Below are positions 1,650 through 40,892 of a DNA stretch of 64,000 nt, in pieces (within the stretch, counting starts at the first letter, position 1; each line of letters opens with the position of its first letter). The notes beneath the pieces are model-generated. The model was not told the origin of the DNA and ran no database searches. It saw only the letters and a list, made by a program, of their open reading frames with translations. Made by a program: the position numbers and the translations under genes. The DNA comes from an uncultured Ignavibacteriales bacterium (GTDB taxonomy: Bacteria; Bacteroidota; Ignavibacteria; UBA10030; SZUA-254): assembly GCA_963714795.1 (NCBI GenBank), contig CAVQPS010000010.1, positions 385,002 to 449,001 of the forward strand. The letters are read 5' to 3'.

Positions 1650-2111
1650 ATGCGGGAGGCATTCATGGTACATTCATTCACGAAAATTTTCATCCATCTT
1701 GTTTGGTCGACAAAATTCCGGCAACCGTTTCTCACCGGCGAATTGCGGCCGACACTAAAAACACATATTGAAATGTATGCTAAAGAAAACAATATCCAGA
1801 TCGAATCGCTTGCCGTGCAGCCGGACCACGTTCATTTACTCATACAATTGCAAAGTGATCAACGCGTTGAAGATATCCCCAAGCTGCTGAAAGGAGAATC
1901 ATCGCATTGGCTCAATTCCCAAGACCTACTTTGTGTCAAATTTTCCTGGCAACGGGGTTATGGCGCTTTCTCGGTAAGTCCCGGCCATGTGGATCGGGTT
2001 CATAATTACATCCTTAATCAGGATGAGCACCATCGCACGAAACCTTTTTCGGAGGAGCTGCAAAATATTCTCGAAAAACATGGATTCACCATGCACGCCT
2101 CAGAAGATTAA
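1650..2111 (+). CDS. tnpA: IS200/IS605-family HUH Y1 transposase (TnpA), possibly REP-associated tyrosine transposase (RAYT); solitary, with no tnpB
   Basis: The HUH motif is present as HVHLLIQL and the catalytic Tyr region as RGYGAFSVS. The N-terminus FTKIFIHLVWSTKFRQP is typical of IS200 TnpA. Length is ~150 aa. The alternative start at 1665 (MVHSF) is also plausible. Confidence 0.8.
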   Translation: MREAFMVHSFTKIFIHLVWSTKFRQPFLTGELRPTLKTHIEMYAKENNIQIESLAVQPDHVHLLIQLQSDQRVEDIPKLLKGESSHWLNSQDLLCVKFSWQRGYGAFSVSPGHVDRVHNYILNQDEHHRTKPFSEELQNILEKHGFTMHASED

Positions 2112-2143: not shown

Positions 2144-2737
2144 ATGCCCTATAAGAAACTTCCGCGCTCATTCTATCTTCGTCCAACACTGACTGTTGCA
2201 AAAAATCTTCTTGGAAAATATTTTGTCCGAACCTTGGGCAAACAAACGCTGGTCGGAAAGATTGTCGAGGTTGAAGCATATCTCGGCAAGAAGGATCCTG
2301 CAAGTCATACGTACCGCGGTAAAACAAAACGGAATGAGGTCATGTTCAAAAAAGGCGGGCACCTTTATGTCTATTTTACGTACGGTATGCATTTTTGTGC
2401 GAATGTCGTTACAGAACAAGAAGGGATCGGACATGCAGTATTGCTGAGGGCTATCGAACCGGTTGAAGGAATTGATTTGATGAGAAAGAACAGAGGGTTT
2501 GCGACCGATAAGCCGGAAATAAATCTTACCAACGGACCGGCAAAATTATGTGAAGCGTTTGGCATAGCACGAAACGAGAACGGAACCGACCTCCTTGGCG
2601 TCAAAATCTTTATCACACCCGGCAAATCGATTTTGAAGAAACAAATTATTCAATCAACAAGGATCGGCATAAAAAAAGGCATTGAGAAACGATGGAGATT
2701 TTACATCAAAGGAAACCAGTTCGTTTCAAGACCCTAA
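2144..2737 (+). CDS. mpg: DNA-3-methyladenine glycosylase (Mpg/AAG family)
   Basis: The motifs [42 protein letters not shown] and [14 protein letters not shown] are characteristic of PF02245 alkyladenine glycosylases. Confidence 0.85.
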
Positions 2738-5608
2738 GATTTCAGCTCCTCTTTCAAAAATTGCCCTGTGTATGATTTCTTATTCTTCGCCACATCCTCC
2801 GGCGCGCCTTCAGCAACAATTTCTCCGCCGTTTTTTCCTCCTTCAGGACCGAGATCGATAACCCAGTCAGCAGTTTTGATGACATCGAGATTATGCTCGA
2901 TGACGATCACGGTGTTTCCTTTATCGACGAGCTTATCGAGCACCGATAACAACATCCGGATATCTTCGAAGTGCAATCCGGTTGTCGGTTCATCCAAAAT
3001 ATAGAGCGTCTTGCCGGTTCCGACTTTTGAAAGCTCCGTCGATAATTTCACACGCTGCGCTTCACCGCCGGAAAGTGTCGTTGCCTGCTGACCCAATCGA
3101 ATATATCCCAGCCCGACATCATACAACGTTTGCAATTTTCTCTGTGAGACTCGGAATCTCGCTGAAAAATTCAACCGCCTCCGCGACTGTCATATTCAAC
3201 ACATCGGCAATCGACTTTCCCTTATACAATATTTCCAGTGTTTCACGGTTATATCGTTTTCCCTTACAAACCTCACACAAGACATACACATCGGGCAGGA
3301 AATTCATTTCAATTTTTCGCACGCCGTCGCCCTCACATTCGTCACAACGACCGCCCTTTACATTGAAACTGAACCTTCCGACCTTGTAACCGCGTATCTT
3401 TGCTTCCGGCAGTTGTGAATACAAATCGCGAATGAATGTGAATAATCCCGTGTACGTTGAGGGATTGGAACGGGGCGTTCTTCCGATCGGTGACTGATCG
3501 ATATCGATCACTTTATCGATATAGGCAAGCCCGTCGATAGATTTGTACGGCAGAGGTATTTCTTTCGACTTAAAAAATTTTCTTGAAAGAATTCGATACA
3601 ATGTTTCGGAAATGAGACTCGATTTTCCGGAACCGCTCACTCCCGTGATGCAGACAAATGTGCCGAGCGGAATATTCAGCGTCAGTGATTTCAGGTTATT
3701 GCCGCGTGCACCAAGAAGAGAAATTGTATTTCCGTTTCCTTTGCGGCGCCGGTTGGGAATTTCAATCTTTTTCTTGCCCGACAAATACAAGGATGTATTG
3801 GATTCGATCCCCTGGTTCACACCGTTGCTCTTTTTTGAAATTTTCAACTGATTCGGCTTACCGGTCGCAACAACATGCCCGCCATGCTCGCCGGCGCCGG
3901 GACCGAGATCAACCAGAAAATCCGCACTCTGAATCATTTCCTTGTCATGTTCGACAACGATCACCGTATTTCCAAGGTCGCGGAGTTCTTTTAAGCTGTT
4001 GATAAGCTTGATGTTATCCCGTTGATGCAGGCCGATGCTCGGCTCATCCAGAATATACAGGACGCCGACAAGTTGTGATCCGATTTGCGTCGCGAGACGG
4101 ATGCGCTGACCTTCACCGCCGGAAAGTGTCCGTGCCGACCGATCAAGAGTCAGATAATCGAGACCGACATTCAAGAGAAAATGCAGTCGTTGAGTGATTT
4201 CTTTCAGAATTTGTTTGGCGATTTCTAACTGCCGGCTCGTCAGTTGCAACATTTCAAAGAAATCATATGCATCCCGGATCGAAAAGCCGACAACGTCGTT
4301 GATATTGAATGTCTTTTTAGATTTTGCATCGACCAATTTCACGGCAAGGCTTTCCCTGCGCAGCCGTCCTCCCTGACACAACTGGCACGGCTTGGTCGTC
4401 ATAAATGATTCAACCCATTGACGAATTCCTTCCGACGAAGTCTCATCGTAATAATGCTTGAGGACATTGATGATTCCGTCAAACCGCTGTTTGTATGTTA
4501 CGATCCTTCCGGTGGAATAGGTATACGGAATTTCAAATTTCTCATCTCCCCCGCCGTGAATCAGAAGATCGATGAACTGCCGGGAAAGTTTTTTGACGGG
4601 AGCGTTCAAATTGATATTGTATTTTTTGGATACTGCGCGAACCTGATTCCACAACCATGTTTCGCGCGGCGCGCCTAACGGTGCAAGCCCTTCCTGATTG
4701 ATCGAAAGGTTCGGATCGGGAAGAATCAGATCCATGTCGAAATCTTTCGTCTCACCGAGACCGCTGCACGTCGGGCAGGAGCCGTACGGTGAGTTGAACG
4801 AAAACGAATTCGGCGCCGGTTCATCGTAACTGATGCCGCAGTTCAAACAGGCAAGATGCTGGCTGAAGAGTTGATCCTCCTCGTTTTTTTCGATAATGAC
4901 AAGTCCGGAACCGATCCGCAATGCCGTTTCAATGGAATCGGCAATCCGGGAACGCATGTCGGACCGAACGACAAGCCGGTCAACGACCACTTCGATATTA
5001 TGGACTTTATATCTGTCGACCTGCATCCCCTTTCGAATTTCTTTTACTTCCCCGTCGACACGCACGCGGAGAAATCCGTCTTTGACGATCTCTTCAAACA
5101 ATTCCCGGTAATGACCTTTCCGACCGCGAATGATCGGCGCGAGGATCTGGATATTCGAATTTTCCGGGTATACCATTACGGCATCGATAATCTGGTCAAC
5201 CGATTGTTTCTGCACAACCCGACCGCAATTGTAACAATGCTGGATGCCGACGCGCGCGAAGAGCAAGCGGAGATAATCGTAAATTTCTGTCACCGTTCCG
5301 ACAGTCGAGCGGGGATTATGAGAAACGGTTTTCTGTTCGATGGAAATGGCGGGACTCAGACCTTCGATCTTATCGACATCTGGACGTTCCATGAGACCAA
5401 GAAACTGTCTGGCATAGGCGGAAAGACTCTCCACATACCGCCGCTGTCCTTCTGCGTAAATCGTATCAAACGCCAGGCTCGATTTTCCCGAGCCCGACAG
5501 TCCGGTAATGACGATCAACTGATCCCGCGGCATCTCAACGTCGATGTTCTTGAGATTGTGAACGCGGGCGCCTTTAACAATAAGTGTTTCTTGTTCCAAT
5601 GAAATCAC
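2734..5608 (-). CDS. uvrA: Excinuclease ABC subunit A (UvrA), split into two ORFs (5608..3119 and 3174..2734) by an apparent single-base frameshift near 3140-3160
   Basis: The N-terminal ORF has the first Walker A motif [13 protein letters not shown], zinc-finger Cys pairs and the second ABC module. The C-terminal ORF carries [30 protein letters not shown] and the Walker B motif [12 protein letters not shown]. The join point ...EFFSEIPS / RKLQTL... matches UvrA across a frame change. Confidence 0.85.
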
Positions 5609-5694: not shown

Positions 5695-6465
5695 TCATGT
5701 CGCACCAAACCGGCTTGCGTACATTTCCGTCACATATTTCAATGTCACGTTTCCGTTCGATTGATGTTTCAAAAAAATCTTCTTCAAACCGTCGACAATA
5801 AATTCATGACCGGGCTGACCCGGAGCAGGAATATAGGATGCGGACAAGAATCGTCCTTTCATTCCATCCCAATCGAGAATTTGATGGTTCGGCAATTCTT
5901 TCGATACAATTTCTTTCTGAGAAAAAAATTCACAAAGAGTTTTGATATCGATATTTTTATGATGAATTTTTCCATATTCGGGTGTTTCGCGACGGAGGAA
6001 TTCTTCCAGTTCGATATGAAACGGATCACCACTAATTACACGCGTATTCCAGACCAACACTACCCATCCGTTGGGTTTCAAAATCCGTTGAAACTCTCTC
6101 TTTGACAAAGATCGGTCAAACCAATGAAACGCCTGCGCTGAAATTATGAGATCGATACTATTCGACGATAAGGTCGTTCCCTCGGCACTGCCGTTGATAC
6201 TCACAAATTTTTGGTTACTGCTATATTGTTGTTCAGCAGCAATGCGCATGTTGGCATTCGGCTCGACGGCATAGACCTTCCGGAAATGCGGAAGTAAAAT
6301 CTCGGTCATAATTCCCGTTCCGGAACCGATATCAGCGACAATGCTTTCATCGTTCAGGCTGCAAATTTCTTTTATGACACCGATTAATTCTTCGGGATAA
6401 TTCGGCCTATATTTTCGATAATCATTGACCCTATTGGTAAATCGCTCTTTAGAATCGATCTTCAT
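5695..6465 (-). CDS. Class I SAM-dependent methyltransferase (Methyltransf_11-like)
   Basis: The SAM-binding motif I is present as VADIGSGTGIMTE. It is followed by an acidic residue after a beta-strand (YAVEP) and a post-II region IDLIISAQAFHW. Confidence 0.75.
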   Translation of the reverse strand: MKIDSKERFTNRVNDYRKYRPNYPEELIGVIKEICSLNDESIVADIGSGTGIMTEILLPHFRKVYAVEPNANMRIAAEQQYSSNQKFVSINGSAEGTTLSSNSIDLIISAQAFHWFDRSLSKREFQRILKPNGWVVLVWNTRVISGDPFHIELEEFLRRETPEYGKIHHKNIDIKTLCEFFSQKEIVSKELPNHQILDWDGMKGRFLSASYIPAPGQPGHEFIVDGLKKIFLKHQSNGNVTLKYVTEMYASRFGAT

Positions 6466-6509
6466 ACATCATTATTTTTATGGGGTTACTATGTTTTTTC
6501 ACATCGAAT

Positions 6510-8474
6510 TTAATCACCGGTGGTAAATGTGAGCGTATACGGATTATCCAAATGAACTCCTTCTTTCGTCTGAAGACCGGTAGAAATTGTTATGCTGTAC
6601 GTTGTGTTTGCCTGCAATGCGCCGCTGATATTGTACGTAAAAGAAGTTGTTCCGTAATTAAACGATCCGGGAATATTCGGGCCACTTGAGAACGCTCCTG
6701 CAACCGTTGAGGAATTAATATTACCATTCAGAGTGAATATGATTGAACTTAACGTTTTGGAAACACCCACACTTCCATTCGTCACCGATGTGGTTGTCAC
6801 TTGAAACGGTCCTGTCGAAAATGAAAATGAATAAGGACTGCTCAATCCGCCGCCGCCCGTTGACTGAAGTGTCGTCGGAATCGTCACGGAATAATTCGTA
6901 TTTTCCCCAAGCTCAGCAGTCGGGTGGAACGTAAAACTCGTGCTTCCTTCAAACGTTGAAATCCATCCCGGCACGGACGGTGTGATGATAAAATCATTCT
7001 GTATGCCGGTCGTATCGAGAGGTGCATCCACATTGACTGTGATCGTACTGTTCAACGCGATATTTCCCGTTCCGTCGACCGGCGTTGTCGACGTCACATT
7101 GACCGATGCTGTCGAAAACGAAAAGCTGTTCGGCAACGCCAGAGAATCACCGCTCTTCGAATGCAATCCGGATGAAAGCGTTACCATGTACGTCATATTG
7201 GCGCCGAATCCGTTCGATGGTACAAAAGAAAATACCGGCGAATCATTTTGCAATAACAATGTTCCGGGAATAGACGGAACGATCGAAAACGCTCCGCGCA
7301 CAGTTCCGGTATCGACATTATCGGTCAACGTCATCGTGATTCTTGAATTCAGCGCAATGTTGCCGCTTCCATCAGCCGGCGTACTTGTCGAAATTTGGAA
7401 TGGTATCGTCCTGAACGAAAAACTATACGGCTGAAACGGTGAACCGCCCTTTGATTTGAGTGAGTTCGATACGGAAATTGTATACAAAGTGTTCGTCATA
7501 AACCTCGTCCCCGGCTTGAATGAGAATGAGCTTCCACCGTACGCATAGATGAGGCTCCCGGCAATGGGAGGACTGATAGAAAATGCCGGAAAAACCGTGC
7601 TGGTATCGATTGGCGCAGTGAGAGAAATGGTAACCGAATTTGTCACCGGAACATTGATACTTGCATCTAATGGCGTGGTCGTTAAGACCCGGATTGTCGT
7701 TGTTGTAAATGACGATGAATACCCGTTTTGAAAATGATGTCCATACTTATCGTTGGCAGATGGATCTACGGTAACAGTATATTGCGTATCGTTGATTGCA
7801 TTTTTGAAACTATATTTGATAATGGTGGAATCGGGTCCCGGAAATCCCGGCGTATAAATCCATTGACCGGTAAGCGCCGGTGAAATGTGGATGAATTGAA
7901 AGAATGTAGAATCGACCGGGCTGTTCAATGTCAATGTAATCGTCGATGTGGTCCCGACTTCCGCTGTACCGGCAACGGGAGCCATCGAAATGACACGGAA
8001 ATATGGTTCGGGAGTGAATGTCATAGTGTATGCTGAACTGAAAACATTCCCGTTCACGTCGACGGCGCCGGAATCGACCGTCAGACTATACGGCTGGTTG
8101 ATCTTCCAAAGGAATTTATACAACGATCCACGTGCATCCAAAGGAGTGATCGTAAAGGCATTGGTATTTTGTACCGAAACACTCGTCGTATCCAATTGCA
8201 CGTCACCGAGTGAAGACGTCAGATGAAGTGCATGCTTCATGGAAGTTCTGTCCATGATTTTATTAAACCAAATCGTTACCCGATTTGTGTAGTCAAGGTA
8301 TGGTCCGACACTCTTGTTGGATGGATACGTGGTCATGACCAACGGCTTGATTGCCGGGTCTGTTAATGATTGGTACGATTCGCCGGCAGGACCGACAGGG
8401 CCATCCGATCCTTTACAATGAAACGCAATGAATGAACAGACAAGCACAAGTACTGCCGAAAGATAGTTTCGCAT
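6510..8474 (-). CDS. Surface lipoprotein with a short collagen-like Gly-X-Y segment and multiple SbsA/Big-like Ig-fold repeats (paralogue A)
   Basis: There is a signal peptide plus lipobox (AFHC). GPVGPAGE follows directly after the lipid-anchor Cys. The block SLTDP..KP...TYP...SVGPY...FNKIMDRT is conserved with the neighbouring paralogue. Repeated modules of ~100 aa of the type FSI.P.I.G are present. The protein is Ser/Thr-rich with no Cys after the signal peptide. Confidence 0.7.
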   Translation of the reverse strand: MRNYLSAVLVLVCSFIAFHCKGSDGPVGPAGESYQSLTDPAIKPLVMTTYPSNKSVGPYLDYTNRVTIWFNKIMDRTSMKHALHLTSSLGDVQLDTTSVSVQNTNAFTITPLDARGSLYKFLWKINQPYSLTVDSGAVDVNGNVFSSAYTMTFTPEPYFRVISMAPVAGTAEVGTTSTITLTLNSPVDSTFFQFIHISPALTGQWIYTPGFPGPDSTIIKYSFKNAINDTQYTVTVDPSANDKYGHHFQNGYSSSFTTTTIRVLTTTPLDASINVPVTNSVTISLTAPIDTSTVFPAFSISPPIAGSLIYAYGGSSFSFKPGTRFMTNTLYTISVSNSLKSKGGSPFQPYSFSFRTIPFQISTSTPADGSGNIALNSRITMTLTDNVDTGTVRGAFSIVPSIPGTLLLQNDSPVFSFVPSNGFGANMTYMVTLSSGLHSKSGDSLALPNSFSFSTASVNVTSTTPVDGTGNIALNSTITVNVDAPLDTTGIQNDFIITPSVPGWISTFEGSTSFTFHPTAELGENTNYSVTIPTTLQSTGGGGLSSPYSFSFSTGPFQVTTTSVTNGSVGVSKTLSSIIFTLNGNINSSTVAGAFSSGPNIPGSFNYGTTSFTYNISGALQANTTYSITISTGLQTKEGVHLDNPYTLTFTTGD

Positions 8475-8663
8475 AGGTTCCTCTAAGGTGATGGTAATAT
8501 CTACATCTTGACATAAATATCACATGCAGGGTTTAATCCCAAACCAAGTATTTTGTGTTAAATAAGTTTAACGGAAGGAAAATCTCGTCCAAATGTTCGA
8601 AAAAGGATTGATGGACTTACCGTAGCACTAAAGTATCAAACGAAGGAATGAAAAGCAAAGATT

Positions 8664-8704
8664 GGAGCAAAACCCTTGCGGAGGGTTTTCAGAGACCTCC
8701 GCAA
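8664..8704 (-). terminator. Rho-independent terminator downstream of the lipoprotein gene at 8717-10096 (stem also readable on the plus strand)
   Basis: There is a perfect 11-bp stem ccttgcggagg / cctccgcaagg with an 11-nt loop, flanked by T-runs on both strands. Confidence 0.6.
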
Positions 8705-8716
8705 GGTTTTACAATT

Positions 8717-10096
8717 CTAATTTCCCGTGGTAAATGAAAACGTGTAAGGAGTCTTCAGATATGCTCCGCTTTTTGACCGCATCGCGGTTGAAATTGTTGC
8801 TATGTACGTTGTGTTTGCCGAAAGCGGCAGGTTCGTTGTATAATAATAAAAGTAGTAACTTCCATCAGAATAACTAAGATAACCGCTGACTCCCGGGATG
8901 CTGAAAGCCGATTGTACGGTGCCAGTATCTATTTGAGCATTGAATGCAACTGACATCGAGGACAGGGACCTCGAAACTTCCGTAGTTCCGTTACCGGGAG
9001 AGGTCGATGTTACTGTAAATGGTTCGGTTCTGAATGAGAATACATAGGGAGACAAAAATTTTGTTCCATCTTTTGACCGCATCGAAGTATCAATAGTAAC
9101 TGTATAAAGCGTATCCGGAAGAAAACCACCGTTCGGATAAACGGAAAAGTAAGAATCTCCCTCATTATAATTAAAATAACCGGTAATCGCAGGATTAATT
9201 TTAAACGCGGATACGATGGAACCGGTATCAACACTACTCGTGAACTGAATCACTATTTCGTTAGACAACGAGACATTCGTACTGCCATTTTGAGGATTCG
9301 TATAACTCACTCGGAACGGTGTTGTTATAAATGTTGAAACAGACTGCTGTGGCAGGTAATGACCATCTTTGTCGTGTGCCGTCGTCATGACGGTAACTGT
9401 GTATGGTGTATTGGCGGCAAGCGGGGTCGATGAGATATAGTAAATTATTGTTGAATCACCGCAGCAGTTTTCTACCCATGTGCCGGGGACGTTTGGCGTC
9501 AGATGAATTGATGAAAATATGGATGTATCGACAGCACCGTTGAATGTCATTGAAATTTGAGCAGAAGTATAAACATTGGTTGCGCCATTTGCCGGCGAAA
9601 TGCTTCGAATTCGAAAATACGGTTCGGGCTTGAATGTCATGCTGTATGAAGGTGATAACGCATTACCATTGATATCTTTCGCCGATGAATCGATATTTAC
9701 GGTATAGGTCTTTCCGATCTTCCATTGATAGGAAAAAGAAAGACTGTCTATTGCATATGCAAAAAATAAATCACCTCCGACAGAATAAACAGTTGTTGTA
9801 TCGATATGAACTGTCGTACCCGGAGTTGTGAGTTTTATCGCACGCCGCAACAATGTTCTGTCCATAATTTTATTGAAACGAATCTGGAGCTGGTTGGTAA
9901 AGTAGGGATCATATGGACCAACACTATTCGCCGGCGGATACGTGTTGATGACTTTCGGCATGATGGACGGATCGGTCAACGACTCATCGCCCGGTCCGGC
10001 TGGACCCTGCGGACCGGCAGGACCTTGAATTTCTTTACAACTCAATATAAGAAACACCAAAATGAATATTGCCGCACAACAAATAATTTTTGTCAT
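8717..10096 (-). CDS. Surface lipoprotein with a collagen-like Gly-X-Y segment and Ig-like repeats (paralogue B)
   Basis: There is a signal peptide plus lipobox (ILSC). GPAGPQGPAGPGDE follows after the Cys. The block SLTDPSIMPKVINTYPPANSVGPY...IRFNKIMDRT is homologous to the paralogue at 6510-8474. Both end in F(T/S)FTTG(D/N). Confidence 0.7.
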   Translation of the reverse strand: MTKIICCAAIFILVFLILSCKEIQGPAGPQGPAGPGDESLTDPSIMPKVINTYPPANSVGPYDPYFTNQLQIRFNKIMDRTLLRRAIKLTTPGTTVHIDTTTVYSVGGDLFFAYAIDSLSFSYQWKIGKTYTVNIDSSAKDINGNALSPSYSMTFKPEPYFRIRSISPANGATNVYTSAQISMTFNGAVDTSIFSSIHLTPNVPGTWVENCCGDSTIIYYISSTPLAANTPYTVTVMTTAHDKDGHYLPQQSVSTFITTPFRVSYTNPQNGSTNVSLSNEIVIQFTSSVDTGSIVSAFKINPAITGYFNYNEGDSYFSVYPNGGFLPDTLYTVTIDTSMRSKDGTKFLSPYVFSFRTEPFTVTSTSPGNGTTEVSRSLSSMSVAFNAQIDTGTVQSAFSIPGVSGYLSYSDGSYYFYYYTTNLPLSANTTYIATISTAMRSKSGAYLKTPYTFSFTTGN

Positions 10097-10288
10097 GAAA
10101 CCCTCCAGCGGTTAAGTGACTTCAAACCTAACTATTACCTAACGGCAAGAACAGGGAAAACGAGATGTGATTCTACCCAATAGTTCAAAGGTACTGAACG
10201 GGAAACTGAAATGCAATTCCGTGACAAAAACCAGGGAAAACATATTGAATGGTGAAAAACGAAGGGGGTGTATATTGAAGAACTATGT

Positions 10289-11194
10289 CTACCCGAGTCT
10301 TTGCCGTTTATGCAAATACTCGAACAATGCAACATCGAACGGCGTTGCCGTATCGAGCAAGACATAATCGATATTGTGCTCGCGGCATTCTTTTTTAAGG
10401 GAATTAATGAAATGCTTCATTTCTTCCTGGTAGGCTTTCTGGATATGCCACGGCTGGGTCGTTAATTCTTCGGCGGTTTCCAGATCTTTGAAGACGGCAT
10501 CGCTGCCGAATGCAAAACTTCTCTCGAGGGGATCGAGGATCTGTATCACGATCACTTCGTTTTTTTTATGCCGGAAGTGCCGTAAAGCGCTCATCACCTC
10601 TTCCGGCTTATCGAAAAAATCACTTAAAATGATCACCAGTCCCCGTCGCTTAATCCGCTCGGCTATATTATGCAACGAGTTTGCCGTTCCGGTTTTATTG
10701 CCGGGCTTGAGTAATTCGAGCTGTCGCATGATTTCGCGCAAATATGTTTTTGTTGCATGCGGCGGCATGGAAAACCGGACCGTCTCGTCGTAAATGGTAA
10801 ATCCCACAGCGTCACGCTGCTGAACCATCAATTGTGCAAGCGCAGCACAGATAAACGAGGCATATTCGAGTTTTGTTAAACGATTCTCCGATGCAAACGA
10901 CATCGATTTGCTCGCATCGAGAATAAGATACGATTTGAGGTTGGTCTCTTCTTCAAATTGCTTGATGTAATACCGGTCGGTCTTGCCGTAAATTTTCCAA
11001 TCGATATGCCGGATCTCATCACCGGGCATGTATTGCCGGTGCTCGGCAAATTCAACACTGAAACCGTGATACGGACTTTTATGCAGACCGGTGATAAACC
11101 CTTCCACGACGAGACGTGCTACCAGCTCCATGTTGGAAAGTTTCGCGACAACATCGGGTTGAAGATATTTCCGGTAGTCCTGAACCGTTTCCAT
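10289..11194 (-). CDS. DUF58 domain protein (MoxR/VWA-associated family), with no adjacent MoxR ATPase
   Basis: The DUF58 signature is present as GFSVEFAEHRQYMPGDEIRHIDWKIYGKTDRYYIKQFEEE. It is followed by a VWA-like region with LILDASKSM. Confidence 0.8.
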   Translation of the reverse strand: METVQDYRKYLQPDVVAKLSNMELVARLVVEGFITGLHKSPYHGFSVEFAEHRQYMPGDEIRHIDWKIYGKTDRYYIKQFEEETNLKSYLILDASKSMSFASENRLTKLEYASFICAALAQLMVQQRDAVGFTIYDETVRFSMPPHATKTYLREIMRQLELLKPGNKTGTANSLHNIAERIKRRGLVIILSDFFDKPEEVMSALRHFRHKKNEVIVIQILDPLERSFAFGSDAVFKDLETAEELTTQPWHIQKAYQEEMKHFINSLKKECREHNIDYVLLDTATPFDVALFEYLHKRQRLG

Positions 11195-11201
11195 CAGGGC
11201 T

Positions 11202-11705
11202 TCATTTCTTTGTTTTTTGATCGGAAGAATCCGAGGTACTTACATTTTGCTGCAATGCCTGACCGGGATCTTTCCCCATGTTCTCCAGTTCAAATTTCGC
11301 GGATTGCGCCAGCTCATGATTCGGATATTGCTGCAGAAATGATTGATAAATGGCTTTGGCACTGTCGGTGTTATGAAGTTCGTTATTGAACATAAATCCT
11401 GAAAGGAACAACATCGTCGGCGCTTCTTTGCTATTCGGAAACATCGTATAATACCGCCGGTAGGTATGTAAAGCTTTCTGTTCATCTTTCATGTCGTTCG
11501 AATAAATCGTTGCCAGCTGTGAAAGCGAGCTTTCCGCGTACGCTACCGTGGGAAACCGATCGACAATTTCTTCGAACCGGTCGGAGGCAACAGTAAAATT
11601 TTTCTGCGATTCCGCTTCTTTTCCCTCGCTATACAATTGAGAATCGCTTTTGCGTGAACAGGATGATAATATGATCAAACAGATAAGAAATGAAAAATAT
11701 TTCAT
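11202..11705 (-). CDS. TPR-repeat lipoprotein
   Basis: It has a signal peptide plus lipobox (LSSC). Helical repeats match the TPR pattern (AYAESSLSQLATIYSNDMKDEQKALHTYRRYYTMFPNS...AKAIYQSFLQQYPNHELA). Confidence 0.6.
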   Translation of the reverse strand: MKYFSFLICLIILSSCSRKSDSQLYSEGKEAESQKNFTVASDRFEEIVDRFPTVAYAESSLSQLATIYSNDMKDEQKALHTYRRYYTMFPNSKEAPTMLFLSGFMFNNELHNTDSAKAIYQSFLQQYPNHELAQSAKFELENMGKDPGQALQQNVSTSDSSDQKTKK

Positions 11706-14043: not shown

Positions 14044-14263
14044 AACATACTAAAAAACGACAAGAGAATCAATGAAGGAATAAACGCGGTACTGGCTCAA
14101 TTTGAACTGCGTTGAGATTGCTTCGGCACTACGTGCCTCGCAAAGACGACTTTTTTGCTTGAAATATTTCAAACTGACCCACTATCAAAAACGGAAGGTG
14201 AAATAACAATAAAAATCCCGACCACCGCCAACAGGCAGCAGCCGGGATTATTGTTAGGTTCTA

Positions 14264-15403
14264 TTATTGAAGGACATTAATGTTTTTCTTCGCACACATA
14301 TCTCTCAGAACCTTGGGCCACACGGTCACACTCACTTCACCGAGATGTGCCTTCTGCAAAAGCAACATGCAGGTTCTGGCTTGCCCGATGCCGCCGCCGA
14401 CGCTGAGCGGAATTTCATCGTTCAAGATTGCCTTGTGATACGGGAGCTTCATAAAGTCCAACTGTTTCGACATCTCAAGCTGCATCTTCAACGTTTCTTT
14501 TGTAACGCGGATGCCCATCGACGTCAATTCGTGACGACGTTTGGTAACAGGATTCCACACGAGAATATCGCCGTTGAGTCCATGCATGAGCTTGCCGTTT
14601 TTCTTGATTGTCGGGGTTACCCAATCATCATAATCCGCCGCTCGCATTTCGTGCGGGTAGCCGTCTTCCAATGGCCAGCCGATACCAAGAATAAATACCG
14701 CCGGATATTTTTGAAGAATGGCGGTCTCGCGGGCTTTGCGCGGCAGGTCCGGATACATGTCGAGAATTTCTTCGGCATGCAGGAACATTAACTCATCCGG
14801 CAACGGAGGATTTTTCGTTTTATTCAATTTCGGAAATTCGGAACGGACAAACGTGTCTGCGCCTTTAATGACTTTCCAGATTTTCCGGATAACATCTTTC
14901 AGGAAATCGAGATTGCGTTGATCTGCCGTCATGACTCGTTCCCAATCCCACTGATCGACGTACGCGCTGTGATCGTGATCGAGAAAATAATCTTTACGCA
15001 CGGCACGCATATCGGTGATGAGTCCTTCGCCGGCCTTCATACCGAACTGCTTCAGGGCAACGCGTTTCCATTTTGTCGCCGCCTGAACCACCTGCGCATC
15101 GATCGGATGTTTATTGTAATCGTTTGTGATATGAAACTGCACCGGCGTACGCGAACCGTCGCGATCGAGCATATCGTTCACACCGCTTTCCACATCGACA
15201 ATCAGAGGAACTTCGACGCGGATGAGGTTCAATTCCTTGCACATATGATCTTCGATATATCTCTTGACCGCCGTGAGAGCAACCTGCGTTTCTTTCGGGT
15301 TCAAACATGACGTGTAATCATTGGGAAGAACTTTTTCCAGATCTTCATAATTACCGATACCGGGTCCTGCGAGATCAGCTTTTTTCGTAGACATTACGGT
15401 CAT
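14264..15403 (-). CDS. asnA: Aspartate--ammonia ligase (asparagine synthetase A)
   Basis: AsnA is matched closely along its length. The matching segments include SAYVDQWDWERVM, DMYPDL, VFILGIGWPLEDG..HEMRAADYDDW, HGLNGDILVWNP, ELTSMGIRV and GGGIGQARTCMLLLQ. Confidence 0.85.
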   Translation of the reverse strand: MTVMSTKKADLAGPGIGNYEDLEKVLPNDYTSCLNPKETQVALTAVKRYIEDHMCKELNLIRVEVPLIVDVESGVNDMLDRDGSRTPVQFHITNDYNKHPIDAQVVQAATKWKRVALKQFGMKAGEGLITDMRAVRKDYFLDHDHSAYVDQWDWERVMTADQRNLDFLKDVIRKIWKVIKGADTFVRSEFPKLNKTKNPPLPDELMFLHAEEILDMYPDLPRKARETAILQKYPAVFILGIGWPLEDGYPHEMRAADYDDWVTPTIKKNGKLMHGLNGDILVWNPVTKRRHELTSMGIRVTKETLKMQLEMSKQLDFMKLPYHKAILNDEIPLSVGGGIGQARTCMLLLQKAHLGEVSVTVWPKVLRDMCAKKNINVLQ

Positions 15404-15596
15404 CTCCTTTCAGTGATGTTCATGAGGTCTATCTCAAAAAATTGTTACGAATAGGTTGAAGTTAATTCGGGTAAGAACGCTGAAAACAGGCGGTGAACAT
15501 TGTTCACCGGAAGCTCTTGTGATGAAGAAATGTACAGTAAAGTACAAAATTATGGAGTCATAGTCAATTGGTCTGGTAGAAACGGATTTTTATATA

Positions 15597-15630
15597 ACAA
15601 AAAGGCACCGGAGAAATCCGATGCCTTTTA
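15597..15630 (-). terminator. Rho-independent terminator after clpB
   Basis: A hairpin aaaaggcaccgga-gaaa-tccgatgcctttt with one mismatch lies immediately 3' of the clpB stop and is followed by a T-tract on the minus strand. Confidence 0.5.
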
Positions 15631-15651
15631 CAATTCGAATTACACGAATTT

Positions 15652-18291
15652 TCAAACCACCGGTTGTGGTTGAGTTTTCTTGACAAACTCAATCAAACCG
15701 CGGTTATTCAATTCGACGACAACCGTATCGCCTTCGGTGAATTCTCCGGCAAGCAGTCGTTCGGATAATTTGTTGACGATATATTTTTGGATGACCCGCT
15801 TCAACGGTCGGGCACCAAGAGTCGGATCGTAGCCCAACTTGGCAACCCAATCTTTCGCCTCTTCCGTTATCTCCAGCGTCATTCGTTTCCCTTCCAGCAT
15901 ATGCTTGACGCGGTTCAACTGAAGATCGACCACCTTGCGAAGCTCTTCCCGGTTGAGCAGTTTGAACAGAATGATCTCATCTATTCTATTGAGAAATTCC
16001 GGTCGAACCGATTGCCGGAGCATTTCAAACAATGCAACACGCAACTCTCCGTACACTTTTTCCAATTCACCGTTACTGCCGACTTCCGCGCCAAGCCGAT
16101 CCTGGATAAGCTGCGAGCCGAGATTCGACGTCATGATGATGATCGTATTCTTGAAATTTACGGTCCTCCCTTTATTATCGGTCAACCTGCCGTCATCGAG
16201 CAGTTGCAGCAATAAATTGAAAACTTCCGGATGCGCTTTTTCAATTTCATCGAGTAGCACAACCGAATACGGTTTCCGCCGAACGGCTTCCGTCAGTTGC
16301 CCGCCTTCTTCGTAACCGACATATCCCGGCGGCGCACCGATCAGGCGCGAGACGGAAAATTTTTCCATATACTCGCTCATGTCGATACGGATCAACGCGT
16401 TTTCGTCATTAAATAAATATTCCGCAAGCGCGCGCGCCAGCTCGGTTTTGCCGACGCCGGTCGTTCCGAGGAAAATAAATGAGCCGATCGGGCGCTTTTC
16501 ATCCTGTAACCCCGCACGGCTCCGCCGGATGGCATCACTGATTGCATGAACCGCTTCTTCCTGATCGACAATCCGTTCATGCAAACGGTCTTCGAGGTGG
16601 AGAAGTTTCGAACGCTCGCTTTCCAGCATGCGGCTCACCGGAATGCCTGTCCAACGTCCGACAATTTCCGCGATATCCTCAGCATCGACTTCTTCCTTCA
16701 GCATTTTTTTATCTTTTTGAACGGCGGCAAGCTGCGCACCGGCTGCTTTCAACTGTTTCTCCAGCGACGTAATAACTCCATACCGGAGCTCTGCCACTTT
16801 TGCAAGATTTCCGTCCCGCTCGTTACGGTCTGCTTCTGCTTTAACGTTTTCAATTTCTTCTTTCATCCGGCGCATCGACTTGATAAAATCTTTTTCATTC
16901 AGCCAGTGAGCCCGTAGGCCGCTACGCTGCTGGTTTAATTCGGCAAGCTCACGCTGAATCTGGTCGGCACGAGCGGTCGTATCTTCTCCCTTTTCACGAA
17001 GAACAGCTTCACGCTCAATTTCAAGCTGTTTGATCCGTCGTTCCACCTCATCCAATTCTTCCGGCATCGAATCGATCTCGATGCGTAATTTTGATGCGGC
17101 TTCATCGACAAGATCGATTGCTTTGTCAGGCAAAAACCGATCGCTGATGTAGCGATAACTCAATTGTGCGGCCGCCACGATCGCGCCGTCGGTAATGCGC
17201 ACGCCGTGATGCACTTCGTACCGTTCTTTCAAGCCGCGTAAAATGGAAACGGTCTCCTCCACACTCGGCTCGTCAACCAGTACCGGCTGGAATCGCCGTT
17301 CGAGCGCGGGATCTTTCTCGATATATTTCCGGTATTCATCGATTGTCGTCGCACCGATAGCACGCAGTTCGCCTTTTGCAAGCGCCGGCTTGAGCATGTT
17401 GGCGGCATCGACAGCACCCTGCGCCGCACCCGCGCCGATGAGCGTATGCAATTCATCGATGAAAAGAATAATTTCCCCTTCCGACTCCGTAACTTCTTTG
17501 AGAAGCGCTTTCAACCGCTCTTCGAATTGCCCACGAAAACTGGTACCGGCAACCAATGCGCCCATATCGAGAGCAATGATACGTTTCGATTTCAGATTTT
17601 CCGGGACATCACCCTGGATAATGCGATGCGCAAGTCCTTCGGCTATTGCCGTTTTCCCGACCCCCGGTTCGCCGATCAGTACCGGATTATTTTTCGTTCT
17701 CCGCGAAAGAACCTGCAAGACGCGGCGGATTTCTTCATCACGACCGATCACCGGGTCGAGTTTTCCCTTGCGCGCGAGTTCGTTCAAATCGCGGCCGAAA
17801 CGCTCTAACGATTGATATTTTTCTTCCGGCGTTTGATCCGTTACCCGCTGGGTTCCACGGACATCTTTCAATGCTTTATAAATTTCTTCTTTCGTTACGC
17901 CCTGATCGTTCAATAATTGTGTTGCGGGAGATTTGACGGACAATATGCCCAGCAATAAATGTTCCGTGCTCACATAATCATCATGCAATAAAGTCGTTTC
18001 TTTCAAGGAAGCTTCAAAAAGCTGGTTGATTGCCTGACTCAAAAATTGATTTCCGACACTCGCACCGGTGACTTTCGGCAGCTTTTCGATTGCTTCATTG
18101 ATTTTAATTTTTATGTAGCCGACATTCGCCCCGACTTTTTGCAGAATAGGAAGGACAACTCCCTGACTATCCTGCACCAGTGCAGCAAGCAAATGTTCCG
18201 GCTCAATCGATTGATTGTTGTAGCTCGCAGCAATTTCCTGTGCGTTCTGCACCGCTTCCTGCGATTTAATTGTAAATTTATTGAAGTTCAT
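15652..18291 (-). CDS. clpB: ATP-dependent chaperone ClpB (Hsp100 disaggregase)
   Basis: It has a Clp_N domain. There are two AAA+ modules with Walker A motifs GEPGVGKT and GTTGVGKT, a long middle coiled-coil and a C-terminal D2-small domain. Length is 879 aa. Confidence 0.95.
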
Positions 18292-24029: not shown

Positions 24030-24049
24030 TGGAATTCATCATAATCGAA

Positions 24050-25639: not shown

Positions 25640-25708
25640 GGTTACAAATTCCTTCCAGTAAACAGCATATTATTCATAGTGATTTTAAAAACAGTTATGT
25701 CGCCGGTA

Positions 25709-27955: not shown

Positions 27956-27959
27956 ATTC

Positions 27960-28268
27960 CTATTCCTTTAGTTTATTGATTTCATCCACATTCACAGTGT
28001 GGAAGCGCTGATAAATATTCAGCACGATCGCCAGCGCGATGGCGGCTTCAGCGGCAGCAAGAATAATAACGAACACCGCGATCGCCTGTCCGTCCAGTTT
28101 CATTCCGCCGTACCGTGCGAACGCGATAAAATTGATATTGGCGGAATTCAAGATCAACTCGATGCCCATCAGTACGAGAATTGCATTCCGGCGAGTGACG
28201 ACGCCGTACAATCCCAATGAAAAGAGAATCGCGCTGATGATAAGATAATGTGTGAGACCAACCTGCAT
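27960..28268 (-). CDS. nuoK: NADH-quinone oxidoreductase subunit K
   Basis: It is a 102-aa three-helix subunit. The conserved Glu-containing segment is LMGIELILNSANINFIAFA. Confidence 0.9.
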   Translation of the reverse strand: MQVGLTHYLIISAILFSLGLYGVVTRRNAILVLMGIELILNSANINFIAFARYGGMKLDGQAIAVFVIILAAAEAAIALAIVLNIYQRFHTVNVDEINKLKE

Positions 28269-28337
28269 ATCAATTCAAAAGTTAAAAGTCAAAAGTAAAA
28301 ATGAAAAAGTCAAAATGAAAAAATCAAAAAAACCATT

Positions 28338-28856
28338 TTATTTCTTACCGACTGAGAACTTATCTTTTCGGGCAATCATTGCCGCTCCGATTAACGCCAC
28401 AAGCAAGACGATGGATGCAACTTCAAACGGCAGTGAATATGTCGTGACAAATAATTCGCCGAGAGAATTTGCCGTGGATTGCGGAGCGGGAATACCCTCG
28501 ACGATTTTCCAATCGGTCAGGTACACGATCGCACACAAAAAAGGTGCAAAAACGCCGATGATCAACAGCAACGCGGGCATCGTTTGCAATGTGCCGGTTT
28601 TCATATCGACGCTGATAACTTTATTCGTCAACATCACGCCAAAGAGCAACAGGACCAAAATACCGCCGACATAAATCAGTACCTGCGCGACGGCAATAAA
28701 ATCGGCATTCAGCAAAACGTAAATTCCCGCCACACCGAAAAAAGTGAACAACAACGAAAACGCCGAGTAAATAATATTTTTTGAAAAGACGACAATAATG
28801 CCGGAGCCAATGGTGATGATCGCAAAAAAGTAAAATATGATATCGTAAAAGTTCAT
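28338..28856 (-). CDS. nuoJ: NADH-quinone oxidoreductase subunit J
   Basis: It is 172 aa. The NuoJ/ND6-like N-terminus is FYFFAIITIGSGIIVVFSKNIIYSAFSLL. Confidence 0.85.
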   Translation of the reverse strand: MNFYDIIFYFFAIITIGSGIIVVFSKNIIYSAFSLLFTFFGVAGIYVLLNADFIAVAQVLIYVGGILVLLLFGVMLTNKVISVDMKTGTLQTMPALLLIIGVFAPFLCAIVYLTDWKIVEGIPAPQSTANSLGELFVTTYSLPFEVASIVLLVALIGAAMIARKDKFSVGKK

Positions 28857-29467: not shown

Positions 29468-29473
29468 TGTCCG

Positions 29474-30493: not shown

Positions 30494-30496
30494 AAA

Positions 30497-31669: not shown

Positions 31670-31671
31670 AA

Positions 31672-32151: not shown

Positions 32152-32157
32152 TGGATA

Positions 32158-37762: not shown

Positions 37763-37811
37763 CGATGACGCACAATTTACTCATACGGATTTTTACATGC
37801 CGGACTTGTCC

Positions 37812-40054: not shown

Positions 40055-40081
40055 ATTTTTCGATACACCAACTCCACCTTT

Positions 40082-40876: not shown

Positions 40877-40892
40877 GACCGGACTCGTATTC

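Follow-up and report, generated by a model that had tools for sequence, protein, structure and literature searches.

Chains of Big_5-type beta-sandwich modules occur in the S-layer proteins SbsA, SbsB and SbsC of Geobacillus and Sap of B. anthracis, which are secreted by monoderm cells, have SLH/SCWP-binding attachment and self-assemble into lattices. SusE and SusF, too, consist of beta-sandwich domains in a row, and lipoproteins of their type, from a related phylum group, carry a short signal directly behind the N-terminal lipid-modified Cys. This signal, the Bacteroidetes LES, decides surface exposure and reads K-(D/E)2 or Q-A-(D/E)2 (PMC5080379). In M. tuberculosis LdtMt2 a membrane-anchored tandem Big_5 spacer bears a catalytic domain at its tip, and its BIg domains A and B have been identified as Big_5 (PMC3605043). 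Pro-rich Gly-X-Y triplets without hydroxyproline are found in Scl1/Scl2 of Streptococcus, BclA of Bacillus and Bucl of Burkholderia, which are cell-surface proteins with tens of triplets, a trimerising globular domain and an LPXTG or other anchor.

The locus described here lies in a window of 64,000 nucleotides from an uncultured Ignavibacteriales bacterium and encodes two proteins, W459 and W654, that share Big_5 arrays with the S-layer proteins and LdtMt2, and Gly-X-Y triplets with the collagen-like proteins. In contrast to the S-layer proteins they are diderm lipoproteins with a lipid anchor, a Gly-Pro-X tether and no wall-binding domain, and unlike LdtMt2 they are without any non-Ig domain. 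Compared with Scl1/Scl2, BclA and Bucl, just three to six triplets stand in this family between the lipid anchor and the Ig domains. The tether is like the LES in its position and loosely negative charge, but its motif is C-x-(G-P-X)3-4 and not an acidic cluster, and no Sus-like TonB-dependent transporter is located nearby. The window is core chromosome, with the nuo operon and haem biosynthesis, and the relevant features are as follows.

5695-6465 (-), SAM-dependent methyltransferase gene, 44 bp downstream of W654 (Pfam Methyltransf_11)
6456-8600 (no strand), segment with W654 and its upstream spacer, missing in relative L142 (blastn collinearity, gene table)
6510-8474 (-), W654 gene (ORF; 654 aa; signal peptide, Cys20, tether, six Big_5)
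6513-8003 (-), W654 D2-D6 (domain identity matrix, coordinates checked)
6513-6806 (-), W654 D6, counterpart of W459 D4 (45% identity)
6807-7103 (-), W654 D5, extra middle module
7104-7400 (-), W654 D4, extra middle module
7401-7694 (-), W654 D3 (43% identity to W459 D3)
7695-8003 (-), W654 D2 (41% identity to W459 D2)
8004-8369 (-), W654 D1, first Big_5, orthologous to W459 D1 (Pfam E 4.7e-9; 48% identity)
8370-8414 (-), W654 tether, aa 21-35, K-GSDGPVGPAGES-YQ, with the Gly-X-Y run at 8376-8411
8475-8716 (-), 242-bp spacer between W459 and W654, with a cassette junction at 8578-8600
8578-10290 (no strand), segment with W459, its upstream spacer and terminator, missing in L143 and L144 (blastn collinearity, gene tables)
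8667-8712 (-), intrinsic-terminator hairpin 3' of W459, with a GC-rich core stem of 11 bp and TTTT behind it
8717-10096 (-), W459 gene (ORF; 459 aa; signal peptide, Cys20, tether, four Big_5)
8720-9019 (-), W459 D4, distal Big_5, mosaic and variable (per-domain dN/dS)
9020-9316 (-), W459 D3, Big_5 (Pfam, domain comparison)
9317-9619 (-), W459 D2, Big_5 (Pfam; also a weak fold-level CopC match)
9620-9982 (-), W459 D1, first Big_5 (Pfam Big_5 E 1.3e-9 for this piece alone)
9983-10036 (-), W459 tether, aa 21-38, KEIQ-GPAGPQGPAGPG-DE, with the Gly-X-Y run at 9989-10024
10037-10039 (-), W459 Cys20 codon
10040-10096 (-), W459 signal peptide, aa 1-19, lipobox I-L-S before Cys20 (read from sequence)
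10289-11194 (-), DUF58/vWA-like gene, conserved upstream neighbour (Pfam DUF58 1.8e-49)
11202-11705 (-), YfiO/BamD-like TPR lipoprotein gene, conserved neighbour (Pfam YfiO 2.2e-11; C-SRKSD...)

Both adjacent minus-strand ORFs named in a preliminary description of this DNA are present, and their status as tandem paralogues is confirmed by 40% identity across the whole 459-aa protein (E 2e-102). For W459 252 homologues were found, and W654 has a 93% orthologue, P0231. The lipid-anchor Cys is invariant in alignments A1-A4. A lipoprotein signal had been claimed for both proteins, and this stands for W459 with its canonical lipobox ILSC. The lipobox of W654, AFHC, has His at position -1 (Asn in the 93% orthologue), a residue unusual there for signal peptidase II, and because of this atypical lipobox lipidation of W654 is likely but not certain. 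The W654 gene is preceded by an AGAGGA ribosome-binding site inside the spacer. The strong hairpin terminator noted earlier behind the upstream copy was reproduced with RNAfold at -25.5 kcal/mol (z = -4.68), and 0/200 shuffles were as stable.

Big_5 (PF13205) is the sole Pfam family of both proteins, with four stretches in W459 and six in W654, and AlphaFold2 predicted four beta-sandwiches in W459 (pLDDT 90.6) and six in W654 (pLDDT 88.5), in agreement with the Ig-fold arrays first described. Only the tether of W459 and residues 17-31 of W654, its tether region, fall below pLDDT 50. The sandwiches are linked by Pro-containing connectors of 2-3 residues, each module ends F-x-F/T-x-T, and the extra modules of W654 (D4, D5) are internal in the domain identity matrix. 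A conserved N-terminal block, SLTDP...FNKIMD, had been regarded as a separate element and is instead the first Big_5 domain, which covers model positions 4-103 of 105 (E 1e-9). W459 D1 holds most of the family's invariant residues (SLTDP...RFNKIMD...PEP), and in the family alignment 22 columns are at least 90% conserved in D1 versus 7-14 in D2-D4. Similarly, the C-terminal F(T/S)FTTG is present but is simply the strand with which the final Big_5 domain ends. Pfam and NCBIfam searches of both proteins gave no T9SS C-terminal domain, as stated before, and no other domain family, including SLH and other wall-binding or lattice modules. Nothing pointed to an enzyme: a catalytic domain and NCBIfam matches were lacking, and the proteins are Ig-fold arrays, not members of a periplasmic enzyme family. 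The best Foldseek matches were S-layer Ig arrays (4aq1, 4uj6, 4uic, 9g93, 6hhu), and the LdtMt2 domains were strong fold matches as well (3vyn, 4hu2, others). The Big_5 proteins themselves are of an ordinary kind.

Behind the Cys, W459 reads C20-KEIQ-GPAGPQGPAGPG and W654 reads C20-K-GSDGPVGPAGES, each with four Gly-X-Y triplets. These are the sole Pro-rich runs of at least four triplets among the six-frame ORFs of the window, and when the residues of each protein were shuffled, at least four triplets with at least two Pro arose anywhere in just 0.1-0.25% of trials. Absence of the runs from orthologues would have refuted the first description; the collagen-like run is real and kept in orthologues, with at least three triplets in 118/184 family N-termini. 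Family tethers are 10-22 residues long; those with the run have 3-6 triplets (mode 4) and the consensus C-[K/R/E]-(G-P-X)3-4; the first Gly is at Cys+3 in 88 of the 118 Gly-X-Y tethers and the X position is Pro in 90-94% of triplets 1-2. About one third of the family (66/184) carries an unrelated 10-14-residue linker in place of the run, which is therefore not indispensable for the protein. No segment of the family is better conserved than the tether, whose mean pairwise identity is 59% against 38-44% for the folded domains, the former value being partly inflated by low-complexity Gly/Pro composition and by the mostly Gly-X-Y-type sequences chosen for alignment A1. Alongside K/R/E at +2, an acidic residue stands between +2 and +5 in 83-86% of the family's tethers, whether these have Gly-X-Y or not, and W459 (K-E-I-Q) and W654 (K-G-S-D) have one each. 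Since most tethers have a single acidic residue and zero is the commonest net charge, they do not conform to the LES consensus. Four triplets are far below the length of any self-standing triple helix known to us and, without hydroxyproline, too short for the tether to be a collagen domain by itself; Pfam Collagen was not matched by W459 or W654 and nothing indicated a true collagen domain.

The motif C-x-(G-P-X)3-4 behind a lipobox Cys was found in 44 lipoprotein-type metagenome matches of at least 17 unrelated clusters, including MtrC/MtrF-like cytochromes, a trypsin-like peptidase and a metallo-beta-lactamase-fold protein; as the scan demanded the motif, these numbers document breadth across families and not frequency per genome. 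All members (119/119) of the MtrC-like cytochrome family have the tether. The MtrC/MtrF-like sequences are from Ignavibacteriaceae, Ignavibacteriales and Bacteroidota MAGs, and the gene of the tethered cytochrome closes a porin-cytochrome-like cluster. The lipoprotein cytochrome encoded by such clusters in Shewanella is exposed at the cell surface. The outer-membrane lipoprotein cytochromes of the MtrC/OmcA type are not homologous to W459 and W654 and differ in fold and function, and with an identical tether in the MtrC/MtrF-like family they are used here solely as evidence on the class of lipoprotein that the tether marks. The adjacent YfiO/BamD-like lipoprotein, an internal control, was without the tether in 19/19 orthologues, as were about 30 further lipoproteins of these loci, and the 425 kb of Ignavibacteriota loci yielded no further tethered family. 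Longer runs, of 10-19 triplets, occur in other lipoproteins that begin in the same way, and these pass the Pfam Collagen model or come close to it (L135 with 34.3 bits; L101, L075, L052). The short Gly-Pro-X tether, a conserved and apparently undescribed motif, recurs in many lipoproteins from Ignavibacteria-like bacteria that are unrelated to each other. Gly-X-Y triplets beside a lipid anchor had been called uncommon, which does not hold in this lineage; that many unrelated lipoprotein families have the tether in common had been overlooked.

Named homologues of the Big_5 lipoproteins are all from Ignavibacteria, Ignavibacteriales, Kryptonia or Bacteroidota MAGs, and as far as named records go the family is restricted to Ignavibacteriota/Bacteroidota MAGs, with taxonomic statements limited by assembly and binning labels because all homologues come from MAGs. 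In about 17 of the 21 genome loci, 1-3 family genes stand in one core slot with the order YfiO-like TPR lipoprotein, DUF58, Big_5 genes, uvrA. This is a fixed core-genome slot and not an accessory island. The DUF58 gene adjoins the Big_5 gene(s) in 18/21 loci with 68-87% identity, and the methyltransferase is present in the three closest relatives and missing from the slot in more distant loci.

Three close relatives with about 90% DNA identity show three states: both genes, the 459 form only or the 654 form only. L142 carries 51 bp where the 6456-8600 segment would be, and the breakpoints of the two alternative deletions fall at the spacer's cassette junction, 8578-8600 (alignment A5). One copy seems sufficient, as sister genomes hold just one of the two forms. 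Family identity is 38-55% where neighbours reach 70-87%. Pairwise dN/dS was 0.34 for W459, against 0.02-0.19 in the comparison, and 0.095 for W654, and both genes are by these values under purifying selection. The distal domain D4 of W459 has 69% amino acid identity to the closest relative and a dS of 0.575, versus 90-96% and 0.07-0.13 in D1-D3. What varies is how many copies and how many modules there are, together with the distal domain, which is mosaic. The family had been called diversifying, a description that is weakly supported given the purifying selection.

We give about an even chance to the reading that W459 and W654 are Ig rods of the outer membrane, probably exposed at the surface, and that their tether serves across the lineage for sorting or as a spacer. 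It is somewhat unlikely that the rod instead points into the periplasm, anchored in the outer membrane's inner leaflet or in the inner membrane, as a structural spacer or scaffold with a plain Pro-rich flexible linker, possibly acting jointly with the DUF58/vWA-like protein and the BamD-like lipoprotein. Such a role is consistent with the core-genome location and with the YfiO-like and DUF58 genes as close, conserved neighbours, the intergenic gaps in other loci being as small as about 35 bp. It is also consistent with the housekeeping-like purifying selection on W654 and with LdtMt2, one of the top fold matches, in which Big_5 domains act as a spacer between membrane and peptidoglycan. A plain linker should, however, not be the best-conserved segment, locked at Cys+3 across unrelated families. 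BamD-like lipoproteins are periplasmic in characterised BAM systems, and it is the adjacent BamD-like lipoprotein that lacks the tether (0/19), which is universal in the MtrC-like cytochrome of the porin-cytochrome cluster. A variable, recombining distal domain and changing copy and module numbers are also more typical of exposed proteins.

Quite improbable is an arrangement of three lipid-anchored chains, side by side at the membrane, in which the (G-P-X)3-6 runs wind into a short triple helix, and trimeric rods could tile in an S-layer-like manner. The runs are strictly G-P-X with Pro at the helix-favouring X position, their fixed distance from the anchor would set the register, and lipid tails stabilise short collagen-model peptides in peptide amphiphiles. 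With the lipoproteins of the same start and 10-19 triplets, near or above the Pfam Collagen threshold, the runs therefore form a continuum that extends to real collagen stalks. To our knowledge, though, 3-6 triplets (mode 4) without hydroxyproline are far shorter than any bacterial collagen shown to fold; W459 and W654 do not match Pfam Collagen, about one third of the family has the unrelated linker, and neither a trimerisation domain behind the tether nor an SLH, lattice or wall-binding module was found. Although SbsB, SbsC and Sap belong to the best fold matches, these are generic matches of Ig arrays with TM-scores of about 0.2. A metal-binding or enzymatic periplasmic protein, e.g. a CopC-like copper chaperone, is hardly credible. 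Pfam CopC does match W459 D2 (26.4 bits, cut-off 23.3), several long homologues have a precomputed PF04234 match and one bears the name 'methionine-rich copper-binding protein CopC' (JGI annotation), but only one Ig-fold module inside the chain is matched, and its Big_5 score is far better. The Cu(II) site of CopC depends on a free His at the mature N-terminus, and an internal domain has none to offer. With 2 Met and 3 His, D2 is rich in neither residue; the lack of a catalytic domain and of any NCBIfam match also argues against this role.

As surface-exposed rods, W459 and W654 would be anchored in the outer membrane via Cys20 after signal peptidase II cleavage and acylation and would project stiffly, most likely from the cell surface, to a length of about 15 nm with four modules or 22 nm with six. 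D1, which lies next to the membrane and is the family-defining and most conserved folded module, probably docks to a putative conserved envelope partner, and reach would be set by the number of middle modules. W459 and W654 are probably functionally redundant length variants, because either alone is kept in sister genomes. An adhesin or S-layer function, as proposed earlier, is no more than a candidate; the distal module, as the variable end exchanged by recombination, would be the part that meets the environment, to bind, to shield or to mediate adhesion between cells or of cells to surfaces. The tether may be a lineage-wide N-terminal lipoprotein module that serves as an extended polyproline-II-like spacer and/or a surface-export signal, which in the latter role would be analogous to the Bacteroidetes LES at the same position.

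The adjacent minus-strand genes W459 and W654 encode predicted Big_5 Ig-like domain lipoproteins of a known kind, and the tandem paralogy claimed for them in the preliminary description holds. In BLASTP, W459 aligned over its whole length with residues 1-455 of W654 (40% identity, E 2e-102), and a second alignment was shifted by two modules. The two genes are separated by a spacer of 242 bp, and the strong hairpin terminator reported between them was recovered there (−25.5 kcal/mol, z = −4.7); the terminator scan had chosen a weaker hairpin overlapping it, and the real one was defined by RNAfold. Except for a GGAGG-type ribosome-binding site before each gene, no obvious common motif was seen in the two upstream regions, and a scan for sigma-70 promoters was uninformative, giving 10 sites versus 9.3 expected.

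Features of the window
1650-2111 (+): Y1_Tnp gene (IS200/REP-associated tyrosine transposase-like)
2735-5608 (−): uvrA, split by a frameshift near 3119-3150
5695-6465 (−): class I SAM methyltransferase gene, between the Big_5 genes and uvrA
6510-8474 (−): W654, probable lipoprotein of 654 aa, Big_5 modules D1-D6
8667-8712: hairpin terminator within the 242-bp spacer
8717-10096 (−): W459, lipoprotein of 459 aa, Big_5 modules D1-D4
22527-32649 (−): complete-looking NADH:quinone oxidoreductase (nuo) operon
36914-43345 (+): haem cluster GluTR, HemC, HemD, HemE and coproporphyrinogen oxidase, preceded by a cytochrome c assembly protein

In Pfam, Big_5 (PF13205, cut-off 23.6) scored 166.3 bits over four stretches of W459 and 225.9 bits over six stretches of W654. 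AlphaFold2 with family alignments predicted four beta-sandwiches for W459 (pLDDT 90.6) and six for W654 (88.5), joined by connectors of 2-3 residues. In these single-chain models pLDDT fell below 50 only at residues 20-35 of W459 and 17-31 of W654, that is, at the end of the signal peptide and in the tether, the short Gly-X-Y segment right after the lipid-anchor Cys20. The Ig-fold arrays noted earlier were thereby upheld, all modules being beta-strand, and Foldseek against the PDB matched generic Ig arrays (SbsB, SbsC, Sap, the Big_5 spacer domains of LdtMt2, and titin). Searched against PDB sequences, the family profile yielded marginal Ig-domain matches to TssM and nothing stronger. Module by module, the two proteins show positional orthology, W654 D1, D2, D3 and D6 corresponding to W459 D1, D2, D3 and D4 with 48, 41, 43 and 45% identity, respectively; W654 D4 and D5 are extra middle modules, and old (~40% identical).

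The preliminary description was confirmed as a set of observations and supported in part as an interpretation: the Ig arrays, the collagen-like runs and the lack of a T9SS tail stood, and the conserved N-terminal block as a separate element did not. That block, SLTDP...RFNKIMD...PEP, matches Big_5 over its full length when taken alone (E 1e-9, model 4-103 of 105; 39.2 and 37.4 bits for the two N-terminal blocks) and is therefore domain 1. All modules end alike, and the C-terminal F(T/S)FTTG(D/N) is simply the closing strand of the final Big_5 module; no Por_Secre_tail (TIGR04183 / PF18962 or type B) was found in Pfam or NCBIfam. Pfam and NCBIfam contained no enzymatic domain for either protein, NCBIfam gave no match, and Pfam Collagen (PF01391) gave none at E ≤ 0.1 for the four triplets of each. 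No SLH or SCWP-binding wall-anchoring module was present, Pfam giving Big_5 alone. By these searches the two proteins are neither collagen-like proteins nor T9SS cargo nor SLH-type S-layer proteins. A CopC copper protein (PF04234) was also considered, from a weak match of 26.4 bits on W459 D2 (3 His, 2 Met), and rejected. In CopC the mature protein's N-terminal His builds the Cu site together with His/Met ligands; since D2 is internal it has no free N-terminal His, and the match is a resemblance at fold level only.

Both signal peptides are basic, then hydrophobic, and end at Cys20. The lipobox rule applied (PROSITE PS51257) was [LIVMFWSTAG]2-[LIVMFYSTAGCQ]-[AGS]-C after a basic n-region and a hydrophobic h-region. 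The W459 lipobox (L-I-L-S-C20) is canonical and fits the rule; that of W654 (I-A-F-H-C20, window 8415-8420) departs from it at −1, where His is unusual for signal peptidase II. This position is Asn in the 93% orthologue and Ser or Gly in more distant ones, yet the Cys is invariant across every family alignment, so W654 is probably, though not certainly, a signal peptidase II substrate with an atypical lipobox. After the Cys, W459 reads KEIQ-GPAGPQGPAGPG-DE and W654 reads K-GSDGPVGPAGES-YQ; the tether lipopeptides are written as Pam3Cys-KGPEGPAGPPGES and Pam3Cys-KEIQGPAGPQGPAGPGDE. Among all six-frame ORFs of the 64-kb window, runs of at least four Gly-X-Y triplets with Pro occur in these two tethers only, and residue shuffles of W459 and W654 produced such a run anywhere in 0.1-0.25% of trials. 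The Bacteroidetes lipoprotein export signal (LES) is K-(D/E)2 or Q-A-(D/E)2, immediately following the lipidated Cys (PMC5080379). Its strict consensus, which is that of Bacteroidetes and may not be that of Ignavibacteriota, is unmatched by W459 (C-K-E-I-Q) and W654 (C-K-G-S-D), each with Lys at +2 and one acidic residue.

W459 has 252 homologues at E < 1e-5, all named sources being Ignavibacteria, Ignavibacteriales, Kryptonia, "Chlorobiaceae" or Bacteroidota MAGs, and they are annotated as "Ig-like domain-containing protein" or hypothetical. With a profile built on the first 160 residues, 161 clusters (50% identity level) were matched at E ≤ 1e-30, and the number rose to 554 at E ≤ 1e-10. Scanning species-representative genomes for the family gave 21 loci, all MAGs; because the scan patterns were made from 11 closer sequences and are narrow, the lack of a cultured genome among them is weak evidence. 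The number of modules per protein ranges from 3 to at least 8, and D1 is the most conserved folded domain across the family.

The collagen-like run is not absent in the orthologues: of the 184 family N-termini in which a Cys and D1 can be recognised, 118 carry at least three Gly-X-Y triplets. The first Gly lies at Cys+3 in 88 of these 118, in triplets 1 and 2 the X residue is Pro in 90-94% of cases, and the modal number of triplets is four (range 3-8). The other 66 members have an unrelated linker of 10-14 residues, such as CKETDTIYEPVN. K, R or E at +2 and an acidic residue in +2..+5 are found in 83-86% of both Gly-X-Y and non-Gly-X-Y tethers. In a 34-sequence family alignment the Cys and tether form the best-conserved segment, with a mean pairwise identity of 59% (inflated by low-complexity composition and by the choice of sequences) versus 38-44% for the folded domains.

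A tether specific to the Big_5 family, as suggested by the 24 of 24 tethered lipoproteins in the 21 loci and the window that were members, was overturned by a scan of metagenome contigs for DNA encoding C-x-G-P-E-G-P-x-G-P-x-G, which gave at least 120 loci. Among the matches listed, 44 of 121 lie directly after a lipoprotein signal peptide; these listed lipoprotein-type matches include 4 Big_5 family members and fall into at least 17 clusters (17 among those listed) that are unrelated beyond the tether.

Clusters of tethered lipoproteins
MtrC/MtrF-like multihaem cytochromes: at least 16 loci (L024, L035, L037, L042, L045, L049, L051, L056, L060, L061, L063, L067, L112, L114, L119, L137)
150-aa family: at least 9 loci
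Trypsin-like peptidase
Metallo-beta-lactamase-fold protein
Multihaem cytochrome with CarboxypepD_reg domain

Where named, records of the tethered MtrC/MtrF-like family (~375 aa, 5-haem) come from MAGs of Ignavibacteriaceae, Ignavibacteriales and Bacteroidota, and one is labelled Mariniphaga sp. All 119 members examined carry the tether C-[K/E]-(G-P-X)3-8, and in 117 its first Gly stands at +3. An MtrC-like gene is also located at 8001-9194 of the loci L145/L146. In one gene cluster the tethered 5-haem lipoprotein comes last, after a 4-haem cytochrome, an OMP-like protein of 430 aa that has a signal peptide and a C-terminal Phe, a 14-haem cytochrome and a 6-haem lipoprotein; the predicted layout is that of a porin-cytochrome conduit. 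In the Shewanella conduit the lipoprotein cytochrome is the surface-exposed part. Ignavibacteria are known to encode porin-cytochrome conduits (PMC7399161).

Several small proteins have tethers of 10-19 triplets at or near the Pfam Collagen model. Such lipoproteins (L135, L101, L034, L098, L075, L052), in which small beta-rich heads or a metallo-beta-lactamase fold follow and of which some are high-GC, may be genuine lipid-anchored collagen stalks. An abundant human-gut collagen-like family, PCGVELDFAIPRGNPGPAGPRGPIG-CQGPEGPQGPEGPQ..., was found at L026, L031, L032, L038, L041, L044 and at least ~50 other loci; its GPEGPQ repeat number is highly variable, it has an internal Cys, its members are not lipoproteins, and it appears in the results solely because it matched the search pattern. 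Across 425 kb of Ignavibacteriota loci, the motif is absent from ~30 predicted lipoproteins besides the BamD-like one. No description of a lipobox Cys with a G-P-X motif was found in the literature searched, which was incomplete, so this is absence of evidence only, and searches on collagen-like with lipoprotein, lipobox or Ignavibacteria found nothing relevant.

The gene order of the window is kept in about 17 of the 21 loci, as DnaK - ClpB - (AsnA) - Asparaginase_2 - RsmB - YfiO/BamD-like TPR lipoprotein - DUF58 - [Big_5 genes] - UvrA. The slot between the DUF58 gene and uvrA holds one to three Big_5 lipoprotein genes of 344-874 aa, and identity to the window proteins in syntenic loci is 70-87% for the neighbours versus 38-55% for the Big_5 proteins. 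Given also the nuo operon and the haem biosynthesis cluster, which place this region in the core chromosome, the family is a fast-evolving occupant of a fixed core-genome slot and no island. Tandem triplets of family members occupy the slot in L009 (10001-13658), L010 (9971-14605; 770, 390 and 364 aa, three-module short forms included) and L014 (1-4407).

Other features of the neighbourhood vary between relatives. The SAM methyltransferase gene, which follows W654 after 44 bp and no intervening terminator, is also present in the three closest relatives and missing from more distant syntenic loci, and it evolves fast (87-89% aa identity, dN/dS 0.16-0.19). The Y1_Tnp gene has the same position in the close-relative contigs L142 and L143, and looks domesticated or stable rather than recently mobile. 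Synteny is lost upstream of Asparaginase_2 in L142 (1-5900 versus window 14104-16000), where it has DDE_Tnp_IS1-like, HTH_17 and small unknown genes, and the window and L143 have AsnA and ClpB. The split uvrA results from a 1-bp insertion relative to L142, the ORF ending after 829 aa with the last ~128 aa in another frame (957 aa in the relatives' UvrA); it is a pseudogene or else an error of sequencing or assembly.

Three relative contigs with ~90-92% flank DNA identity to the window showed, with the window itself, three states of the slot.

Slot occupancy in the window and its closest relatives
Window: [459][654]
L142: [459] only; window 6456-8600 replaced by 51 bp
L143 and L144: [654] only; window 8578-10290 missing

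The two deletion breakpoints both fall in the spacer, a short way past the terminator and no more than 24 bp apart. W459 has an 88% orthologue (P0001), and the orthologues of W654 are P0231 (93%), then eight-module forms at 46-47%. A recent tandem duplication was rejected, the paralogues being just 40% identical with separate orthologues and the extra modules of W654 being old (~40%). The simplest reading of these sequences is an ancestral pair with reciprocal loss, since the paralogues are old and each has its own orthologues, and such loss would imply that either form alone is sufficient. Pairwise dN/dS was 0.34 for W459, 0.095 for W654 and 0.02-0.13 for DUF58, UvrA, Asparaginase_2, the TPR lipoprotein and RsmB. 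No sign of positive selection was seen, pairwise dN/dS being below 1 in every domain. W459 D4 (8720-9019) is only 69% identical in amino acids to L142 11081-11380, with dS 0.575, versus 90-96% and dS 0.07-0.13 for D1-D3. As the divergence comes with high dS, this suggests that the tip module was exchanged by recombination rather than diversified by positive selection.

At an assumed ~4 nm for each Ig module, W459 and W654 would form outer-membrane-anchored rods of ~15 and ~22 nm, in which D1 may dock to a conserved partner and the distal module may face the environment, the two proteins being putative redundant length variants. The rods probably sit on the cell surface, by analogy with the MtrC-like cytochromes carrying the same tether. 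The main rival is a periplasmic scaffold linked to the DUF58 protein and the BamD-like lipoprotein encoded beside the slot. Characterised homologues of the latter face the periplasm; its 19 orthologues all begin C-S-R-K-S-D and none has the tether. Among known systems, the nearest functional analogues are the Big_5 spacer of LdtMt2, the LES-bearing multi-beta-sandwich surface lipoproteins of Bacteroidetes, and the Ig-array S-layer proteins SbsB and SbsC, which share the fold but are anchored differently. A literature search on Big_5/PF13205 found nothing beyond LdtMt2.

For the tether, a sorting and/or spacer element is favoured over a collagen helix. Its length is defined, with a modal four triplets in two unrelated families, and does not scale like that of a stalk, and it occupies the exact position of the Bacteroidetes export signal (PMC5080379). 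The K/R/E at +2 and the acidic residue within +2..+5, kept by both tether types, argue in the same direction. A short collagen-like trimer would explain the strict G-P-X composition, could have its register fixed from the membrane, and has relatives with 10-19 triplets, but it is less favoured because four triplets without hydroxyproline are too short for a triple helix alone. To our knowledge every self-standing triple helix is far longer.

Taken alone, the gene pair is ordinary, consisting of uncharacterised and unsurprising Ig-repeat lipoproteins. What is new, as read from the predicted proteins, is a short Gly-Pro-X run, position-locked and of defined length, on at least 17 unrelated lipoprotein clusters including cytochromes of the extracellular-electron-transfer type. 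Interest rests mainly on the generality and conservation of this tether and on the either-or cassette behaviour of the locus. We propose, very tentatively and with more doubt than confidence, that C-[K/R/E]-(G-P-X)3-4 at +3 could be an undescribed sorting or assembly signal for a lipoprotein subclass of Ignavibacteriota and neighbouring FCB lineages, acting either as an LES counterpart that sends these Ig rods, the MtrC-like cytochromes and similar proteins to the surface or as a membrane-nucleated mini-collagen that trimerises them, with W459 and W654 as model cargo and the either-or slot as a natural length-variation system for a surface rod. If a lipid-nucleated triple helix is formed, the tether would be the shortest natural collagen module known. 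As far as we know, delivery of lipoproteins to the surface has been described in outline only, in Bacteroidia and a small number of further groups, Ignavibacteriota not being among them, and a simple, transplantable motif would make the question directly testable. The motif would also sharpen predictions of the surface proteome in this environmental phylum, which is abundant and mostly uncultured, for example as to which multihaem cytochromes are extracellular.
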